The notes under the pieces: model-generated
What the model saw: the letters and a program-made list of their open reading frames with translations, nothing else
What the model was told of the DNA's origin: nothing
Databases searched by the model: none
Position numbers and translations under genes: made by a program
Shown: in pieces, positions 1 to 11,075 of the stretch
Position numbering within the stretch: the first letter of the stretch is position 1
Layout of the letters: every line of letters begins with the position of its first letter
IMG/VR virus record: IMGVR_UViG_3300047546_001881
Span: 1-64,000 of that record
Reading direction: 5' to 3' (one strand)
Origin: a virus
Length of the DNA stretch: 64,000 bases

Positions 1-2
1 CG

Positions 3-239
3 GTGTGGCTGGACGATGTGCCCTTGCTCCCCGACCTCACCGATCCCGCCACGCTGGGCTGCCTGCTCGCGCTGGTGCGGGAAAAATGGGGCGATTCTGA
101 AATGCACTTGGCTCTTGGTGCAAAAGGTTGGGTATGGTTAACGGGCGAGAGCCGCGTTTATGACGTTGTAATGCCAATAAGTGCAGGAGAAACCGAAGCC
201 GATGCTCTTGTTAATGCGCTGGAAGCAGAATGTCCTTGA
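3..239 (+). CDS. hypothetical phage protein (probably 5'-truncated by window edge)
   Basis: GC-rich ORF with PDLTDPATLGCLLALVRE...TEADALVNALE motifs typical of a small phage protein family. Confidence 0.55.
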   Translation: MWLDDVPLLPDLTDPATLGCLLALVREKWGDSEMHLALGAKGWVWLTGESRVYDVVMPISAGETEADALVNALEAECP

Positions 240-270
240 CAACCTAAACGAGAGCGGTTAAGATATAAAC

Positions 271-477
271 ATGCGATACCTTCGATACTCCGAACCCGAT
301 ATGGATGGAAAACAAAAGATTATTCGTGTTTCTGTTGAACAAGCCGTAAAGCAAGCAAAATATATTGCTGAACGTCTTAACTATATTTATGAAAGCGATG
401 AAGAAGCACTACAGGATTTTATTGCTGTAAATTGGGCATCTTATGAAGATGCTTATTGTGATGAAGAAAGTTCTTGA
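271..477 (+). CDS. hypothetical protein
   Basis: 68-aa ATG ORF, collinear with neighbours. Confidence 0.55.
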   Translation: MRYLRYSEPDMDGKQKIIRVSVEQAVKQAKYIAERLNYIYESDEEALQDFIAVNWASYEDAYCDEESS

Positions 478-591
478 CAGGAGACTTATCAATAGCGACT
501 ACTGGCGCGGAAATACCGAAGCCGAGGCCCTGGTCGCCGCCCTGGAGGCTACGCCGAACACAAGCGGCGAACATCGCCGCAAGGGGGAGAG

Positions 592-945
592 ATGAGTCGC
601 TCCGATATGACTTTCTTGAACAAAATCCTTCCGAGGGCACAAGCGCACGGGGAAGCCGTCGCAAACCATCATTTCGTGACGATGCTCAACCCCAAGTACA
701 GGGGCGATGGCTTCAAGTGGGAAGGGTTCGTTGAGTTCGCGGTTCGATGGGCCGAGGTGTCCTGTTGGCAATCGTTCACCGACGCCGAGTGGAAGCGGTG
801 GGAGAAGGAAATCAAGGCCGCTGTGGGCAAGTCTGCCAAGTATGCTGCTGAGCGCATCTTAGAAGAATCGGGGCTGCTTGAGTGGTGGCCCGACCCGACC
901 CGCACCGCTGCGAGGAGGAATGATGACCTACTCCATGAACACTAA
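592..945 (+). CDS. hypothetical protein
   Basis: 117-aa GC-rich ORF preceded by GGGGAG RBS. Confidence 0.6.
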   Translation: MSRSDMTFLNKILPRAQAHGEAVANHHFVTMLNPKYRGDGFKWEGFVEFAVRWAEVSCWQSFTDAEWKRWEKEIKAAVGKSAKYAAERILEESGLLEWWPDPTRTAARRNDDLLHEH

Positions 946-1130
946 CAACTTAAATAGATGTAATCATTGTGGAGAAGATCATTGAAGTCCGTCAAGACGG
1001 ACTTGTCCCGGAACACACCATAGTCCGAGGAGGAAAGACCTCCTGTAAGGGAGTTGGATTTCTTCCCATATATGATGAACAGGGTCTTCCAAGAGAACCC
1101 GAGACAGAGACCTGTCGCAAGGAGGAGTGA
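920..1130 (+). pseudogene. frameshifted small Zn-ribbon protein (or sequencing error)
   Basis: GAGGAGG RBS and ATG 920 give ...RCNHCGEDH* (stop 985); another frame continues EKIIEVRQDGLVPEH...SCKGVG to stop 1130, together forming CxxC..H..C. Confidence 0.4.
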
Positions 1131-1423
1131 TGAATAAACAAGTTTTCTCTTGCCTGATAACTCCAGATATGCTTGCTTCCCTAAAGCAAGCTAGTGAAGT
1201 AGGGAATGTACAGTTCCATTGTTTGCTCGGACCTAATGCAGATCCTTTTGCCGGTCAGAGCGAATTTCATGATCGGATTACATCAGCATTCAACGAAATA
1301 GCCGACTTCGAACAGGAAGTTCGTGCGCAAGTTTCTGCTATCTTTGCAAAGTACAAACTTGGAGATCATGGTTTTGGCGCTAGTATTAGCGTTTACTATA
1401 ATCGAGAAGAAGACAAAACTTAA
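1127..1423 (+). CDS. hypothetical protein
   Basis: 98-aa ORF with AGGAGG RBS. Confidence 0.55.
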   Translation: MMNKQVFSCLITPDMLASLKQASEVGNVQFHCLLGPNADPFAGQSEFHDRITSAFNEIADFEQEVRAQVSAIFAKYKLGDHGFGASISVYYNREEDKT

Positions 1424-1447
1424 TATTGCAACAAAGAGAACTGACAT

Positions 1448-1723
1448 ATGTCTTATATGAATCAAACTTTTCGCAAATTTGGAGATTATCCATTTAATGA
1501 AGAAGGAATCCTCACAGCCGAGGCGTCGTATCAGAACGGTTACGACACAGGACTCACCTGGAAAGAGTCCTACACTCCAGGCGGCCCCATGGTGTACGGC
1601 CCAGGAATGAAAAAGGACAAAGATTGGATCGCCTATTGTGCCGCGTTAATAGAAAACCACAATAAGTGGCACGATGGATTCCAAGATGGACGTGCCGCAG
1701 CAGTAAAGAAACTTGCACTGTAA
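1448..1723 (+). CDS. hypothetical protein
   Basis: 91-aa ATG ORF. Confidence 0.55.
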   Translation: MSYMNQTFRKFGDYPFNEEGILTAEASYQNGYDTGLTWKESYTPGGPMVYGPGMKKDKDWIAYCAALIENHNKWHDGFQDGRAAAVKKLAL

Positions 1724-1789
1724 ACAGAAGTACTAGCCGCTACTATCATAAAACTCAAAACAGCTACTAACATTATTACAAGAAGAAAA

Positions 1790-1966
1790 ATGGCTCGATT
1801 AAATAAATTACTTGGCAAGCTACCAAAAAAATTTCACTGGTCACTTCACAATTTAGTAGCACATCCTTTATCAGAAATTGTTTATTTAATAGGTTGCGAA
1901 AATCTCTCTAATACAATTCACGATGCAACAATTCCTGAGCATCTTCCAGGTACAGGAAGAGGGTAA
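1790..1966 (+). CDS. small hypothetical phage protein (58 aa, not in ORF track)
   Basis: Hand translation: MARLNKLLGKLPKKFHWSLHNLVAHPLSEIVYLIGCENLSNTIHDATIPEHLPGTGRG*; followed by a terminator-like hairpin. Confidence 0.6.
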   Translation: MARLNKLLGKLPKKFHWSLHNLVAHPLSEIVYLIGCENLSNTIHDATIPEHLPGTGRG

Positions 1967-2001
1967 GTAATCTTGTTTGTAAAATGAACAAGATTACTTT
2001 C
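1965..2001 (+). terminator. intrinsic terminator-like hairpin
   Basis: AAGTAATCTTGTTT / GAACAAGATTACTT inverted repeat right after a stop codon. Confidence 0.55.
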
Positions 2002-2035
2002 TTACCTACTAACAAATAATCTTAGGAGATATCAA

Positions 2036-2242
2036 ATGCGTAATCTTGAATATTATGGTAATGTTGTAACAAATGCATTTATAGTATTTGGTTTCGTACT
2101 AGCTCCAATAATTTTTATTATGTGGATGGCTTATCTCGCTGCTGGATCTTTGGGACTTGTTGCAGCATCTTTTTTGATGCTTGTTAGTTTTGTCATTGGT
2201 ATCTCTATGGAGAATGAACGTAGAGGTAAGCATGACAAATAG
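2036..2242 (+). CDS. small membrane protein
   Basis: AGGAG RBS, two hydrophobic segments. Confidence 0.6.
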   Translation: MRNLEYYGNVVTNAFIVFGFVLAPIIFIMWMAYLAAGSLGLVAASFLMLVSFVIGISMENERRGKHDK

Positions 2243-2477
2243 AAGAGTTACACGTTGTCTTACTTGGGGCGAAGAAAAAGCTACTGGTTTTCCATTACTT
2301 GATAATCAAGGAAAACGTATTGGATTCATTGATTTGAGAGAATGGGTAACTCTCTGTGGAGCCTCTGATAAAGATCCAAAAGAAGCTTGCGGAATAGATG
2401 TCACCAGACTTAGACCAAAAGGTATTTGTCCAAAATGTTGGTCCGTCTACAAACTTCAAATAATGAGCCTCACATGA
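2232..2477 (+). CDS. small Cys-rich (Zn-binding?) protein
   Basis: Likely start MTNRRVT at 2232 (GAGGT RBS); CG...CPKC motif; stop overlaps ATG 2474. Confidence 0.5.
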   Translation: MTNRRVTRCLTWGEEKATGFPLLDNQGKRIGFIDLREWVTLCGASDKDPKEACGIDVTRLRPKGICPKCWSVYKLQIMSLT

Positions 2478-2650
2478 CTAACAGAATAACTTTCCTCACT
2501 GACGAGACAAACCACCGCGTCTTCCGGGGTGGTAGCTGGAGCAACGTCCCGCAGCTCGCGCGGGTCGCCAACCGCAGCTACTTCACCCCCGACTTCCGCA
2601 ACTTCATCCTCGGCGTTCGGCTTGTGGAAGAAATCGAGGACACAAAATGA
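2474..2650 (+). CDS. CLec/FGE-sulfatase C-terminal (VR-like) mini-protein 1
   Basis: MTNRITFLTDETNHRVFRGGSWSNVPQLARVANRSYFTPDFRNFILGVRLVEEIEDTK. Confidence 0.8.
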   Translation: MTNRITFLTDETNHRVFRGGSWSNVPQLARVANRSYFTPDFRNFILGVRLVEEIEDTK

Positions 2651-2793
2651 CTAACAAAGAAATTTACTACTCTTACAGAGGTGGTGGCTGGTTCTTTGCA
2701 CCAGTGTTTGCGCAGATCGTAAGCCACAGCGTAAATTCTTCTAATGGTACTAGCTACTTCCTTGGCCTTCGACTCATTGAGATTGAGGAGTAA
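2647..2793 (+). CDS. VR-like mini-protein 2
   Basis: MTNKEIYYSYRGGGWFFAPVFAQIVSHSVNSSNGTSYFLGLRLIEIEE; ATGA overlap with unit 1. Confidence 0.75.
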   Translation: MTNKEIYYSYRGGGWFFAPVFAQIVSHSVNSSNGTSYFLGLRLIEIEE

Positions 2794-2795
2794 AA

Positions 2796-2939
2796 ATGAC
2801 TGATAAGAACACTGTCTATCTCAATCGGGGCAGTACTTGGTACATCACTACAATGTGTGCGCAGATCGCTATCCGCTTTTACGACACCCCTGACTTCCAC
2901 GATTACTATCTTGGCCTTCGACTTATTGAAATTGTTTAG
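2796..2939 (+). CDS. VR-like mini-protein 3
   Basis: MTDKNTVYLNRGSTWYITTMCAQIAIRFYDTPDFHDYYLGLRLIEIV; GAGGAG RBS. Confidence 0.75.
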   Translation: MTDKNTVYLNRGSTWYITTMCAQIAIRFYDTPDFHDYYLGLRLIEIV

Positions 2940-2947
2940 GAATAAGA

Positions 2948-3094
2948 ATGACTAAAGAAACAAACCACCGTGTCCTCCGAGGTGGCAGCTGGGGTCTTGG
3001 CGCGCAGTACACTCAGATTGTCGATCGTTATAGCAGCACCTCCAATTTTCGGTTCAGTCGCCTCGGGTTTCGACTTATTGAAGTTAAGGAGTAA
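2948..3094 (+). CDS. VR-like mini-protein 4
   Basis: MTKETNHRVLRGGSWGLGAQYTQIVDRYSSTSNFRFSRLGFRLIEVKE; AGGA RBS. Confidence 0.8.
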   Translation: MTKETNHRVLRGGSWGLGAQYTQIVDRYSSTSNFRFSRLGFRLIEVKE

Positions 3095-3096
3095 AG

Positions 3097-3264
3097 ATGA
3101 CTAACAGAACAAAACGCCGCCTCTGCCGGGACTGCGGTTGGCTCTTCCACCCGCAGTCCGCGCAGGTCGCCATCCGCTACTTCATCACCCCCGTCTACCG
3201 CGACTACCGCGACGACCTCCTCGGTGTTCGACTAGTTGAGGTTATTGAAGAAGTTAATGTCTAA
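3097..3264 (+). CDS. VR-like mini-protein 5
   Basis: MTNRTKRRLCRDCGWLFHPQSAQVAIRYFITPVYRDYRDDLLGVRLVEVIEEVNV; AAGGAG RBS. Confidence 0.75.
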   Translation: MTNRTKRRLCRDCGWLFHPQSAQVAIRYFITPVYRDYRDDLLGVRLVEVIEEVNV

Positions 3265-3400
3265 AAAGAAAATCTATCGTATTTACCGAGGCGGAAGCTG
3301 GAATATTGATTCGCAAATTGCGCAAGTTGTTCTTCGTGACTTCAGTACTATTCGTTACCACTACAGCAGTCTTGGAATTAGACTTGTAGAAGTTATATAA
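3257..3400 (+). CDS. VR-like mini-protein 6
   Basis: MSKKKIYRIYRGGSWNIDSQIAQVVLRDFSTIRYHYSSLGIRLVEVI. Confidence 0.75.
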   Translation: MSKKKIYRIYRGGSWNIDSQIAQVVLRDFSTIRYHYSSLGIRLVEVI

Positions 3401-3461
3401 AATCCTCCACTTGATTAGTTTAACTAATATTCATTAACTATAATTACTAAACAAGTTTAAC

Positions 3462-3776
3462 TTGTATGGAGAAAATATGAATGGATTGATTAAAACTACT
3501 GGAGCAGGTCAACCAGAACATACAAAGACTGTTAGAGAGATTGTAGAGTCACAATCTCTTAGTACTAAAATTAAAGAAGATATTCTAGCAAGACTAGATA
3601 CTGGCGAACACAAATATGGCCATAAACTAAAAATGAATTGGCCCAAAGCAAAACAAGAGCTATATCAAGAATTGCTAGATGCATATGTTTATGCTTTAAG
3701 TGCTGAACTGTTTGAGGTTGCTGAAAAGATTATTGACTTGATTAGTATCCTATTCTTAGGAGAGGAAAATGCTTGA
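3462..3776 (+). CDS. MazG-like all-alpha NTP pyrophosphatase family protein (putative)
   Basis: R...G..KYG...QELYQELLDAYVY pattern. Confidence 0.45.
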   Translation: MYGENMNGLIKTTGAGQPEHTKTVREIVESQSLSTKIKEDILARLDTGEHKYGHKLKMNWPKAKQELYQELLDAYVYALSAELFEVAEKIIDLISILFLGEENA

Positions 3777-3993
3777 AGAAATCTTACAATGTAAAGAGTA
3801 CGTAAACTGGATCATTGCCTATGTAGGCTTTCTCCTACTAGCTGTAGTTTCTGGTATGGGGTGGGCGTTATCTACTCCTATAGAAATCTTTGTTGCAGTA
3901 AATCTTGCATTCTTGTTCATTACATTTGGTATTCAATCTTATTGCTGGAAGCTTTCAAATAAAATATTTGCTTCTTGCAAAATTAATGATTGA
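3769..3993 (+). CDS. small membrane protein
   Basis: two hydrophobic helices, GGAGAGG RBS. Confidence 0.5.
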   Translation: MLEEILQCKEYVNWIIAYVGFLLLAVVSGMGWALSTPIEIFVAVNLAFLFITFGIQSYCWKLSNKIFASCKIND

Positions 3994-4090
3994 AAACCTA
4001 TCACCTAGCTTGTATGCATTAATAGGAACATTGATAGTATTTACTCCTGTAATTATATCAATAGTGATTTTGCTACTTGCTAGGTGATTT

Positions 4091-4561
4091 ATGAACTATA
4101 TATTTACAAGTTACAATGGCGGCTTTAAAGCCGCCGCTTCACTTTGTGAAGATGAAACTTTTCGTTCTAAAGTATTAAGTGCTTCTGTTTTGCTTTCTCC
4201 TTTAGAAACAAAAAAACATATAGCTCATGCAGTAACAATAGAGAATCGCCCTTCTATTGGTTTTACTTTTGAGTTTACTACTGCTCTTGCTTTGGCTGCT
4301 TATCTGAAATCAGCGTATACTTACGAGCCATCAGAAATAATCTCTATAGGCTGTTCTACTCGTAATCATCTTCGTCATAAAACAAAAGATGAGCCTTACG
4401 CTTTAATCTCTGTATTACATTTAAACAAAGGCAAAAACCTTTTCTACAATTTTAGAATGTTTGCTAACGAAAAACCAGAAGATACTTTGGCTAAACTAAT
4501 TGTTGATTTAGCTAATATGATTCAATATGGATCTTATCCAAAACAATTACAGGAAATATAA
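4091..4561 (+). CDS. hypothetical protein
   Basis: 156-aa ORF, AGGTG RBS. Confidence 0.55.
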   Translation: MNYIFTSYNGGFKAAASLCEDETFRSKVLSASVLLSPLETKKHIAHAVTIENRPSIGFTFEFTTALALAAYLKSAYTYEPSEIISIGCSTRNHLRHKTKDEPYALISVLHLNKGKNLFYNFRMFANEKPEDTLAKLIVDLANMIQYGSYPKQLQEI

Positions 4562-4636
4562 TGATTGCTCTTATTTCTGCAATTTTGGTAGTAACTATGG
4601 TTGGCATTGGAACAGCAGATCAGCTGAATTAAGCTT

Positions 4637-4677
4637 TACACAAAACTTAAATATTATTTAGGTTTTGTGTATTTTTT
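4637..4677 (+). terminator. intrinsic terminator
   Basis: TACACAAAACTTAAAT / ATTTAGGTTTTGTGTA followed by T-run. Confidence 0.55.
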
Positions 4678-4747
4678 CTTGTAAAAATAGAAAACGATTA
4701 TATCGTTGTTTTAGAATCTTTTAGCCACCTACTGGCAGGGTTAAAAG

Positions 4748-5017
4748 ATGAAGAATTACTTATTTACCGCATTTACTAAGAAACCAAGAAATCCTCTTTC
4801 TATCATTATTAAAGAACATGATACTAAAGATGTTCTTTATGTCACTTACTCTAATGGTCCACAAAACGGGGGTGGATCTTGGGGTGAAGATTTGAGACAA
4901 TTAAATGATAGAACTGTTAATATGATTAAAGAATCTTTCTCTGCTGAAGTTTTTGAAAAGTTCAAAAACACAGTACTAGAAAGAAATGCTTTCAGATTAA
5001 CTCAAACAGAAACTTGA
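4748..5017 (+). CDS. hypothetical protein
   Basis: 89-aa ORF. Confidence 0.5.
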   Translation: MKNYLFTAFTKKPRNPLSIIIKEHDTKDVLYVTYSNGPQNGGGSWGEDLRQLNDRTVNMIKESFSAEVFEKFKNTVLERNAFRLTQTET

Positions 5018-5030
5018 TTGGAGAATTGTT

Positions 5031-5528
5031 ATGATAAAAAGACTACTATTGGCTTTTGCTAATAAGATTATTGAATATGTTTATAAAGATAATAGAAAAG
5101 GAATAGTTGGTCTTTTGATTCTCAACTCTCCAAGCTCTGATGAGGTACTAGATACTTTAATTAAATTAACAGATGCTTTTATGGAAGATTCAATTAAAGT
5201 ATGGAACAAGTATCTTAAGAGCGAGAAGTTTCAAACTTCATTAATAGCTTATCTTATTGAGCGTCCTGATATTGAAAACTTAGCTGAATTCTTAGATGAA
5301 GAAGATGGCTTCATGGCTCTCTTCAACAAGAACTTGAGTTTGTTTTATTACAACATTAATCCTTTTCTATGTTGCCTTAATCCAGAAGATTACTTAGCTT
5401 TTAAAGATTATATGGACGTTCAACTTGACGAGTTTGATGAACTCGTCTTAGACAGCTACGCGGGTATGCTAAAAGTAATGAATGTAGAAGGGATTATAGA
5501 TACTGTTACTTCTTCACTAGATAACTAA
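5031..5528 (+). CDS. hypothetical protein
   Basis: 165-aa ORF, GGAG RBS. Confidence 0.55.
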   Translation: MIKRLLLAFANKIIEYVYKDNRKGIVGLLILNSPSSDEVLDTLIKLTDAFMEDSIKVWNKYLKSEKFQTSLIAYLIERPDIENLAEFLDEEDGFMALFNKNLSLFYYNINPFLCCLNPEDYLAFKDYMDVQLDEFDELVLDSYAGMLKVMNVEGIIDTVTSSLDN

Positions 5529-5597
5529 GGAGTTATATCATGTTAAAAAGAAGAATGCTTCGTCCAGTAGCTCGCTGTAAAGCAGGTTGTTAGCTAC

Positions 5598-5909
5598 GTG
5601 CTATTTCATTCATTAACTAGCTTAACACTTCTAAGCTTTGCCGTTTATGGTTTAGCTTGGACAATTACTAAATCTAGTTTGTTTTTTGATATCAGGGCCA
5701 AGGTTTTTGAGACCTTTGGCCCTGATTCAAAACTAACAAAACTAATCAACTGTATAGTCTGTACATCTTTCTGGGTTTCTTTCTTCATACTTTTTATTAA
5801 TGAAGATACATTCACTTTTAATTTATCATTTACAGACTATCTTACTTGGGCTTTTTATAGCGTTGCTTTTACTTGGATGGTAGGTTTATCTACTGGGGAT
5901 GCTTCTTAA
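5598..5909 (+). CDS. DUF1360-like membrane protein
   Basis: hydrophobic segments with LINCIVCTSFW (CxxC..W) motif. Confidence 0.55.
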   Translation: MLFHSLTSLTLLSFAVYGLAWTITKSSLFFDIRAKVFETFGPDSKLTKLINCIVCTSFWVSFFILFINEDTFTFNLSFTDYLTWAFYSVAFTWMVGLSTGDAS

Positions 5910-9843: not shown

Positions 9844-10224
9844 ATGGAAAGAGATTGGCGCTTATATAACAATATTGATGCTAATACTTTTCTTTTAGAA
9901 ATGTTAGAACTTGGCAAGCCTTTAGAAGTTTCGCTAGTAGGTGCATTTGATGAAGAAGGTAGAGGAAGCCGAAGAGACATCCCTTTACCTTTTCATAAAG
10001 ATGGCGACTATACTACCGAATATAAAGATAAAATTAAGTATGTTGGTCTTTATTGTTTACGTGAAGGAGGTGACGCTTCTTTACTAATAGAAGATTCCTA
10101 TTTAAATGTGTTGACTATTAAATTGAAAACTGGACAAGCGATAGTTTTTAATAATACTACTTGTAGACATGCAAGAGAAGGTACTGTTAGTGATAGAGTT
10201 CTTTTAAGAGTCTGGATAGGCTAA
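9844..10224 (+). CDS. minimal TauD-like Fe(II)/2OG oxygenase
   Basis: PFHKDG (HxD) ... VFNN..CRHAR ... RVLLRVW. Confidence 0.6.
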   Translation: MERDWRLYNNIDANTFLLEMLELGKPLEVSLVGAFDEEGRGSRRDIPLPFHKDGDYTTEYKDKIKYVGLYCLREGGDASLLIEDSYLNVLTIKLKTGQAIVFNNTTCRHAREGTVSDRVLLRVWIG

Positions 10225-10234
10225 AGGAAAAACA

Positions 10235-10810
10235 ATGCATCCCATTCTACAAAAAGTTCAGCAATTAGGTTTTAAGGTCTTTTCAGACGGAGACTACGAT
10301 TTAAATATTATTGGTGTTCGCAAAGCTAATGGTACTCCAAATGCTTTTGACGATACCCTTTACTGCATTTATAAAGTAAATGGTGTATGGCAAGTTAAGC
10401 AGTGGAGGATCACAACTGATCCTGGACTTTATTGGTTAAATAATCCAATGAACAGAATGGGTACAGCAGCAGTTGTAGCTGACAGACAATATAGAAGTCT
10501 TTGGCAGATTGGACTGCACAAGGGCTCTTATAAAGCCCTTGTGCAAGCTAACGACGTTTCAGTACACAGAGACACTAATAAAGATTCTAAAGTAGATTAT
10601 GATCCAACAAATATTCAAACTGGTCACTTTGGAATTAACTGTCATCGTGCTACTGAAAATAAAGGCGGCTCTATCAAAGTAGATAAGTGGTCTGCTGGCT
10701 GCCAAGTATTTGCTGATCCTGGTGACTTTGCAGAGTTCCTCTCTATATGTGACAAGCAAGTATCAGAAAGAGGTTGGACTAAGTTCACCTATACATTACT
10801 AAACGAGTAG
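10235..10810 (+). CDS. YkuD/L,D-transpeptidase-like peptidoglycan enzyme (possible endolysin)
   Basis: GINCHRA...WSAGCQV (H..S.GC) motif, TTDPG. Confidence 0.55.
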   Translation: MHPILQKVQQLGFKVFSDGDYDLNIIGVRKANGTPNAFDDTLYCIYKVNGVWQVKQWRITTDPGLYWLNNPMNRMGTAAVVADRQYRSLWQIGLHKGSYKALVQANDVSVHRDTNKDSKVDYDPTNIQTGHFGINCHRATENKGGSIKVDKWSAGCQVFADPGDFAEFLSICDKQVSERGWTKFTYTLLNE

Positions 10811-10814
10811 TATC

Positions 10815-11075
10815 ATGAATGTCTTAGGTAAGATACTAGTAACTTTATCTCAGTTAAACGCTTTATATGAGTTATTAGATTGGGATGAAGAACTTGCAAC
10901 AGCTCTTTTAGAGAGATGGCACTTAAATCAAAGTGCCATCTTATGTGTACCTGCTAGTTTAAGAGCCTCTTACATGGCCTCTTACTTACCTGAGAATAAT
11001 ATTGAACACATATATTCGTTAACAAATTGGTTGATAGAAAACGGAGCTAATGGTGGGAATTTTTTCCAGAATTAA
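10815..11075 (+). CDS. hypothetical protein
   Basis: 86-aa ORF. Confidence 0.45.
   Translation: MNVLGKILVTLSQLNALYELLDWDEELATALLERWHLNQSAILCVPASLRASYMASYLPENNIEHIYSLTNWLIENGANGGNFFQN

Follow-up and report, generated by a model that had tools for sequence, protein, structure and literature searches.

A phage array of six mini-genes encoding the C-terminal segment of a C-type lectin fold, two of which appear to be diversity-generating retroelement variable repeats

The window analysed here, comprising the first 64 kilobases (kb) of a 75.7-kb linear IMG/VR virus record (IMGVR_UViG_3300047546_001881) judged to be ~50% complete, carries six co-oriented + strand open reading frames (ORFs) of 47-58 amino acids (aa) each, arranged head-to-tail at positions 2474-3400. 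Each of them encodes the C-terminal, ligand-binding segment of the FGE-sulfatase type of C-type lectin (CLec) fold, the segment that forms the variable repeat (VR) of known targets of diversity-generating retroelements (DGRs). Two of the six units, U1 and U5, are very probably DGR-type VRs, and the other four (U2, U3, U4 and U6) look like frozen former VRs. Taking into account relatives in which such units stand next to, or within, a VR-less scaffold protein, we favour with moderate confidence a model in which this phage makes a two-part lectin-like binder whose tips, two live and four archived, form a library and complete a scaffold in trans. The presence of the array as such is a confirmed observation, far beyond chance. 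Its units and the ORF directly upstream are as follows.

U1: 2474-2650, + strand; 58 aa; very probably a live VR; hypervariable tract at ~2522-2598; core GC (guanine plus cytosine) fraction 0.67.
U2: 2647-2793, + strand; 48 aa; static, apparently frozen VR; core GC 0.49.
U3: 2796-2939, + strand; 47 aa; static; core GC 0.51.
U4: 2948-3094, + strand; 48 aa; static; core GC 0.56.
U5: 3097-3264, + strand; 55 aa; very probably a live VR; hypervariable tract at ~3114-3220; core GC 0.66; polymorphic for a 9-nucleotide (nt) indel.
U6: 3257-3400, + strand; 47 aa; static; core GC 0.43, the most AT-drifted unit.
Upstream ORF: 2232-2477, + strand; 81 aa; its TGA overlaps the ATG of U1; not a unit.

A first-pass annotation made from the sequence alone had described six ORFs with starts spaced by 173/149/152/149/160 nt, which was borne out exactly when U1-U6 were located. 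It had also stated that each stop overlaps or abuts the next start, usually with a ribosome-binding site, and the junction coordinates confirmed this arrangement: U1 and U2 share a common ATGA, U5 and U6 overlap by 8 nt, the remaining gaps measure 2-8 nt, and Shine-Dalgarno-like sites (GAGGA, GAGGAG, TAGGA and AAGGAG) are located 6-9 nt ahead of the starts of U2-U5. The mini-genes are 141-174 nt in size. Judging by the stop-start overlap, the 81-aa upstream ORF is probably translationally coupled to U1. It had no Pfam match, and its likeness by eye to a degenerate seventh unit was rejected by a comparison with the unit profile in hhalign (0.3% probability). A consensus scan of 2182-4033 located neither a promoter nor a terminator, no conserved hairpin was seen by eye 3' of the VRs, and no recombinase or inverted repeat was found flanking the array in the window.

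The fold identity of the units was established by profile search. U1 aligned to positions 210-254 of the 255 positions of the Pfam family FGE-sulfatase (PF03781) with an expectation (E) value of 2e-5 and a score of 24.7 bits, above the cut-off of 23.3, and U4 and U6 aligned to the same positions with E values of 4.7e-3 and 0.06. The proposal that the units are the C-terminal VR segment of an FGE-type CLec fold, which the annotation had staked on a profile match to the FGE-sulfatase C terminus, was therefore upheld. A profile built from 28 units recovered all six and found exactly six places on the 75.7-kb contig, U1-U6 (E values of 2e-27 to 6e-19), a match that is partly circular because the profile includes the window's own six units. 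Each unit covers only positions ~210-254, about one fifth of the Pfam domain, and the complete domain of ~255 positions is not present in one polypeptide. The alignment of the six unit proteins contained seven invariant columns, namely R and W of RGGSW together with L, G, R, L and E of LGxRLxE. Loop positions differed between units while these fold-determining residues were invariant.

An indication of DGR activity came from natural variation. The stretch 2200-3700 recurred across 13 studies of aquatic samples (freshwater, river and others), in 20 public runs in all, and Logan contigs of four runs (X3-X6) from four studies were aligned to positions 2000-3900. Run X4 was identical to the window. 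Run X3 provided a single 3154-nt contig across 2000-3900 with 32 substitutions, which were distributed over U1 (17, at 2522-2598), U5 (11, at 3131-3220) and four other sites (2346, 2704, 2711 and 2836). U1 and U5, which make up 345 of the 1901 nt, thus contained 28 of the 32 differences (binomial P 3e-17), and 26 of these 28 were located at codon positions 1-2. In run X5, the contigs ended within the U1 VR, the loose end continuing as a different VR, and 21 differences plus a 9-nt deletion were concentrated in U5, with 13 of the listed differences inside it; the indels of U5 lie at 3197-3211. The U1 VR was uncovered in the contigs of run X6, where a second U5 variant contig was present. A high-depth partial contig of X5 over 2960-3023, containing three 1-nt gaps, was set aside as it probably derives from the RGGSW segment of another organism.

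The remainder of the array hardly varied. Differences in U2, U3, U4 and U6 numbered 2, 1, 0 and 0 in the phage's own contigs from the four runs, those in U2 and U3 each occurring in one run, the flanks of the array were almost invariant between samples, and the array order was unchanged in all four runs. Further variants were encountered among metagenome proteins, three of U1 (P0010, P0014 and P0019) and three of U5 (P0004, P0016 and P0017). All six retained the leader, tail and skeleton, and differed by scattered changes to residues encodable by NNC codons (N, any nucleotide) only. Because the changes fall at positions 1-2 of NNC codons in a GC-rich tract that is otherwise fixed, U1 and U5 are assigned with high confidence to the DGR-type VRs. 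Hypervariation confined to the VR was found for these two units only, and U2, U3, U4 and U6 were not variable. The initial view that all six units are DGR VRs therefore holds in full for U1 and U5 only, which behave as live repeats; U2, U3, U4 and U6 are static and compositionally ameliorated. A separate observation concerns the 62-aa metagenome protein P0013, which joins the leader and first VR half of U1 to the second half and tail of U5; it may have arisen naturally, through recombination between the two GC-rich VRs with loss of U2-U4, or be a chimera of short-read assembly.

A 42-nt skeleton (CCGCNGNNCGCGCNGGTCGCCNNCCGCNNCNNCNNCNCCCCC), matched by both U1 and U5, was built from these two units, every A and every variable position being written as N. 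A search of metagenome contigs with this skeleton yielded nine contigs, one of which (L010) was a chance match. Two of the contigs, L006 and L013, differed at 20 positions over 1031 nt, 19 of them within one 67-nt VR and all of these at codon positions 1-2, and a third (L008) carried another version of the same VR between the same flanks. The 3' sequence CTCGGCGTTCGGCT was exact in six of the nine VR copies without being imposed by the search pattern, and the 5' motif CGGGG(C/T)GG(C/T)NGCTGG, likewise outside the imposed pattern, was common to most of the nine. When the variable columns were set to A, an inferred template encoding a 33-residue peptide was obtained. The real template repeat (TR) of contig L038, located beside a reverse transcriptase (RT) gene, encodes a 36-residue peptide with asparagine codons placed as in the inferred template; this contig came up by chance and served solely to show what a real TR looks like. 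In its own right, L038:829-4313 is a canonical viral DGR cassette, in which a 519-aa target with its VR at the C terminus is accompanied by a TR (~2560-2690), an accessory ORF and an RT (3144-4313).

The U1/U5 VR skeleton was also observed in conventional FGE-sulfatase proteins of ~236 aa, encoded in tandem on contigs of 64-69% GC (L005:649-1509; L009:3-476 and 562-1281). This family has ~730 metagenome members, with up to five copies per contig. In GTDB genomes, IMG/VR and GenBank phages, nothing above 39% identity to it was found (relatives of 28-39% only), so that neither a host nor a DGR donor can be inferred from it.

A composition gradient separates the two variable units from the other four. 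The core GC declines from 0.67 (U1) and 0.66 (U5) through 0.56 (U4), 0.51 (U3) and 0.49 (U2) to 0.43 (U6), in a phage of ~35% GC around the array, where the GC content outside the U1 and U5 cores is 24-45%. In parallel, NNC codons decrease from 22-25 in U1 and U5 to 8-14 in the static units as NNT codons rise. In U1, 22 of the 33 core codons are NNC, compared with 11 NNC and 12 NNT codons in U2 and 8 NNC and 16 NNT codons in U6. The 3' CTCGGCGTTCGGCT sequence is progressively mutated across the static units. By their composition, U2, U3, U4 and U6 look like frozen former VRs that are drifting towards the AT-rich composition of the phage. Such units would arise most simply if an active unit were duplicated, one copy then became unable to receive complementary DNA (cDNA), and that copy drifted AT-ward with its frame and structural residues retained.

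The annotation had suggested comparing array content in related phages, and this comparison revealed similar arrays beside a VR-less scaffold. In L006, L008 and L013, the final array unit continues in frame into ~190 further residues, and in L007 and L011 a fused unit-scaffold gene comes first and is followed by a di-unit gene. The N-terminal 52 aa of the fused protein correspond to PF03781 positions 211-254 and the part that follows to positions 59-121. Because positions 211-254 precede positions 59-121, the fused fold is circularly permuted. The tail consists of a proline/alanine-rich linker and a 45-residue helix (coiled coil). A protein search retrieved 11 fused forms, 17 scaffold-only forms and one form with a C-terminal unit, and the 17 scaffold-only proteins begin exactly at the methionine that is internal in the fused forms (MK.KM.DQVTN...). 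Two IMG/VR contigs of 61% GC from different samples, L014 (105 kb) and L015 (48 kb), contain a di-unit gene that overlaps a scaffold-only gene, with a third unit after it; in L014, the scaffold lies at 9989-10534 and a unit at 10824-10970. In total, a VR-less scaffold (PF03781 ~59-121 plus coiled coil) adjacent or fused to a unit was found in L006, L007, L008, L011, L013, L014 and L015. Repeated fusion and fission together with adjacency are a classical sign that the unit and the scaffold are two parts of one protein, as these gene arrangements suggest.

Arrays of the same build occur in phage contigs of 35-61% GC, and metagenomes commonly contain tandem di-unit proteins that lack a scaffold. 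Positions 1-3330 of a 3.65-kb metagenome contig of 60% GC (L012) contain at least 10 chained unit mini-genes ending in RLVRRC; these have overlapping stops and starts and grade from VR-like to strongly degenerate. Other arrangements were also observed. The 292-aa protein P0096 consists of a cysteine-rich N terminus, the scaffold, the coiled coil and a C-terminal unit, a third arrangement of the parts, and five stand-alone units (P0048, P0053, P0055, P0063 and P0029) carry a C-terminal amphipathic helix (e.g. ...LVRRLSALERLAE...), which might pair with the coiled coil of the scaffold. The phage contig L011 holds, in addition to its unit-scaffold genes, ~10 tandem ORFs of 70-90 aa on the minus strand (3100-5600), in which an N-terminal NWKLY(I/V)D.PE..AL..C.GSMD motif is followed by glycine/aspartate/tyrosine/tryptophan-rich repeats.

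Structure prediction was consistent with the two-part arrangement. The AlphaFold2 model of a fused relative protein had a mean predicted local distance difference test (pLDDT) score of 70, with 87-93 in the scaffold. The best solved match of this model was the DGR variable protein TvpA (2y3c; Z 6.4, root-mean-square deviation 4.5 over 112 residues), followed by other FGE-fold proteins at Z 5.2-5.6, all of these matches being below the safe Z of 8; a Foldseek search against the PDB returned weak FGE-family rows only (best E 0.19). The co-folding of a unit with a truncated CLec domain, as proposed in the first-pass annotation, was carried out on the L014 pair. When residues 1-125 of the L014 scaffold were modelled together with the 49-aa L014 unit, the complex scored 0.91, compared with 0.00 for the best of three controls. 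Three runs shared at least 97% of contacts, the partner pLDDT was at least 75, and 181 contacts were formed. The LGIRLV strand of the unit was paired with the YRLIT strand and the N-terminal strand of the scaffold. This model supports unit-scaffold binding, as a prediction for the L014 pair rather than for the window units. The AlphaFold2 model of a tandem di-unit protein had a mean pLDDT of 44.8 and a predicted template modelling score of 0.21 and thus lends no support to units folding alone, low values that a shallow alignment could also explain.

In the model that we favour, the array would be an operon from which six tip peptides are translated separately, each being the C-terminal, ligand-contacting VR segment of a CLec fold. 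cDNA from an AAC-rich TR would repeatedly overwrite the tracts of U1 and U5. The DGR that keeps rewriting them would be located elsewhere, most likely upstream in the unseen part of the phage genome: the array begins 2.4 kb from the 5' end of the contig, with up to 50 kb upstream unseen, and phage DGR targets are usually within 50 kb of the RT (PMC5758913). The static units would be kept as archived specificities. A peptide would dock on the VR-less scaffold and supply its missing last strands and binding loop, the coiled coil of the scaffold would oligomerise or anchor the complex, and one scaffold could in this manner display many alternative binding surfaces. The obvious ligand candidates are a surface molecule and a defence protein of the host. 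Genes for DNA polymerase, primase-helicase and ribonucleotide reductase on the contig form a phage module for replication and nucleotide metabolism. As the array lies among small early or auxiliary genes, outside a tail module, the ligand could equally plausibly be intracellular (a defence protein, for example) or a receptor. Completion of a truncated CLec scaffold in trans was one of three functions that the first-pass annotation had offered; the scaffolds and fusions in relatives and the complex model speak for it, but the window phage's own scaffold is unseen.

Several points weigh against this model. On the 75.7-kb contig, no RVT_1 and no Avd (PF05635) domain was found, no scaffold homologue was recovered by protein and profile search, and no TR or third copy of the VR skeleton was present with three mismatches allowed. 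Nor did the contig contain a larger or other FGE-sulfatase part at E values up to 1. The units are thus stand-alone across the entire contig, as the annotation had noted for their vicinity, and the DGR RT, AAC-rich TR and FGE/CLec genes that it proposed to look for in the rest of the genome were absent from the 75.7 kb. Because none of these parts is on the contig, the DGR machinery and the partner are assumed for the window phage. None of the three sets searched for the cognate TR (IMG/VR, JGI metagenome contigs and GTDB species genomes) contained it; support for the A-to-N rule is indirect, coming from the changes at positions 1-2 of NNC codons and from the AAC layout that the inferred template shares with the TR of L038. 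The 85% complete relative L014 encodes the scaffold and static units but no RT. The system can therefore do without a DGR, and it may be that the four static units of the window were never targeted by one. The variation data derive from assembled contigs and not from reads, and therefore represent differences between samples rather than diversity within a population. Translation of six peptides from one operon is itself inferred. In the fused single-chain model, the unit reached a pLDDT of only 53-82. As calibration for the complex score of 0.91, 58 of 80 solved complexes and 2 of 110 mismatched pairs attained that mark; this holds only roughly because the alignments used for the L014 pair were our own, and the L014 complex may have passed through the model's memory of solved intact FGE folds.

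The 42-nt skeleton had no match in IMG/VR or GTDB species genomes, and a fully specified guess at the 3' part of the TR had none in IMG/VR. GenBank phages provided no DNA match to positions 1800-4600, two weak protein matches to U4 only and no scaffold. No relatives were found in IMG/VR with U1, U5, P0032 or the fused protein as query, and the protein atlas contained generic FGE-sulfatase clusters only. Close to the 5' end of the window, GC-rich patches (0.55-0.67, in surroundings of 0.27-0.45) were observed at 1-240, 480-950 and 1500-1650. They overlap ORFs at 3-239 (78 aa) and 592-945 (117 aa), and the contig begins inside one of them. By composition, they look like mosaic pieces from GC-rich relatives.

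A variant concerning the source of the diversification deserves mention, in which a foreign DGR, provided by the host or a co-resident element with its own RT, Avd and GC-rich TR, would rewrite U1 and U5 of an AT-rich phage, the four older tips forming a fixed archive. The 65-67% GC islands in a phage of ~35% GC, the presence of the skeleton in the L005/L009 proteins and the lack of an RT in the 75.7 kb are consistent with this variant. We regard it as unlikely, and the GTDB species genomes hold no match to the skeleton.

The units could otherwise be non-functional duplicated 3' fragments of a DGR target, two of them serving as cDNA landing pads and the rest decaying neutrally. Such a by-product would agree with the lack of a scaffold, RT or TR on the contig, with the composition drift of the four static units and with a piece of 47-58 aa that corresponds to about one fifth of the Pfam domain. 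It is difficult to reconcile, however, with six open frames that have ATG starts, Shine-Dalgarno-like sites and coupled stops and starts, with fold-determining residues that stay invariant where loops differ, and with static units that are almost identical in runs from four studies. Same-build arrays in phage contigs of 35-61% GC and in-frame unit-scaffold fusions likewise argue against it, and we consider neutral decay rather improbable.

About equally improbable is a recombination library or deletion switch, in which homologous recombination, or the deletion of units in between, would bring a unit into a scaffold-fused position and one tip would be expressed in a complete, permuted protein, much as in shufflons or pilS cassettes. 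Relatives do carry an in-frame fused unit, either last (L006, L008 and L013) or ahead of a di-unit gene (L007 and L011), the unit ends and leaders are conserved enough for recombination, and the U1-head/U5-tail protein P0013 is what a deletion of U2-U4 would produce. Nevertheless, P0013 could be a chimera of short-read assembly, each unit comes with a start codon and a ribosome-binding site of its own and thus is no silent cassette, and scaffold-only genes followed by separate unit genes exist. Moreover, nothing is fused after U6, the array lacks a flanking recombinase or inverted repeat, and its order is identical in four runs. The related suggestion of the first-pass annotation that the units are donor cassettes for an expressed receptor-binding gene has the single U1/U5 chimera in its favour and nothing else.

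Least probable of all is that the peptides act without a phage scaffold, by folding or oligomerising on their own or by inserting into or competing with host FGE/CLec proteins as decoys or inhibitors, since the lack of a scaffold on the contig, the commonness of scaffold-less di-unit proteins in metagenomes and the C-terminal helix of some units are outweighed by several independent lineages in which a dedicated VR-less scaffold is linked or fused to units, and by a complex model that places the unit as the missing part of the fold with 181 contacts; the decoy function that the annotation had raised found no support.

The split binder with live and archived tips shares features with several known systems. 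In the DGR of Bordetella phage BPP-1 (mtd-avd-TR-brt), the tip of a CLec binding protein is rewritten at template adenines, with an AAC-rich template logic and a GC-rich VR 3' end, and Mtd is a complete tail-fibre protein encoded in the structural module. The present array resembles BPP-1 in the probable rewriting of a phage-borne CLec tip, in a presumed AAC-rich template logic and in the GC-rich VR 3' end. It differs from BPP-1, where a single target is located beside the TR and RT, in having several mini-targets, most of them not diversified, with the cassette unseen, and in its location, among small non-structural genes close to those of nucleotide metabolism and outside a structural module. 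In the R64 shufflon (PilV) and the invertible G/C segments of Mu and P1, a tip is joined to a body by site-specific DNA rearrangement. These systems likewise combine a constant body with alternative C-terminal binding tips placed side by side, whereas here each tip has its own start and is a predicted separate (or fused, permuted) polypeptide, and no recombinase was seen.

A further close likeness is to the Treponema denticola DGR and its variable protein TvpA (2Y3C), which belongs to the same FGE-type CLec subclass and has the C-terminal RGGSW...GFR segment as its VR. The T. denticola DGR serves seven non-adjacent targets and, as proposed here, one template acts on several VRs at a distance (PMC5758913). 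In TvpA, however, the VR ends one complete protein, whereas here the VR segment is its own gene in six copies, relatives encode the remainder of the fold separately or in permuted form, and the contig has neither RT nor TR. Targets down to 44 aa, and a short remote target consisting of the FGE-sulfatase domain alone, were reported by Wu et al. (PMC5758913). DGR mutagenesis and the FGE-type CLec variable protein are known already; no description was found in open-access text of a VR segment as its own gene, of arrays of live and frozen units, or of a separate or circularly permuted scaffold.

DGR targets are usually viewed as whole proteins of which the last ~40 residues are variable, whereas in this array the tip has become a gene of its own that has been multiplied. 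Targets below 300 nt were initially set aside in the survey of Roux et al. (PMC8144416), so that mini-genes of 141-174 nt are easy to miss, and DGR activity in environmental phages may accordingly be undercounted. For two-piece binder libraries, a split or permuted CLec would also offer a compact template from nature. If the parts assemble as proposed, the phage would obtain many binding specificities from one scaffold and keep proven tips while new ones arise, a repertoire-plus-archive that would be closer to immune receptors than to a single tail-fibre switch.

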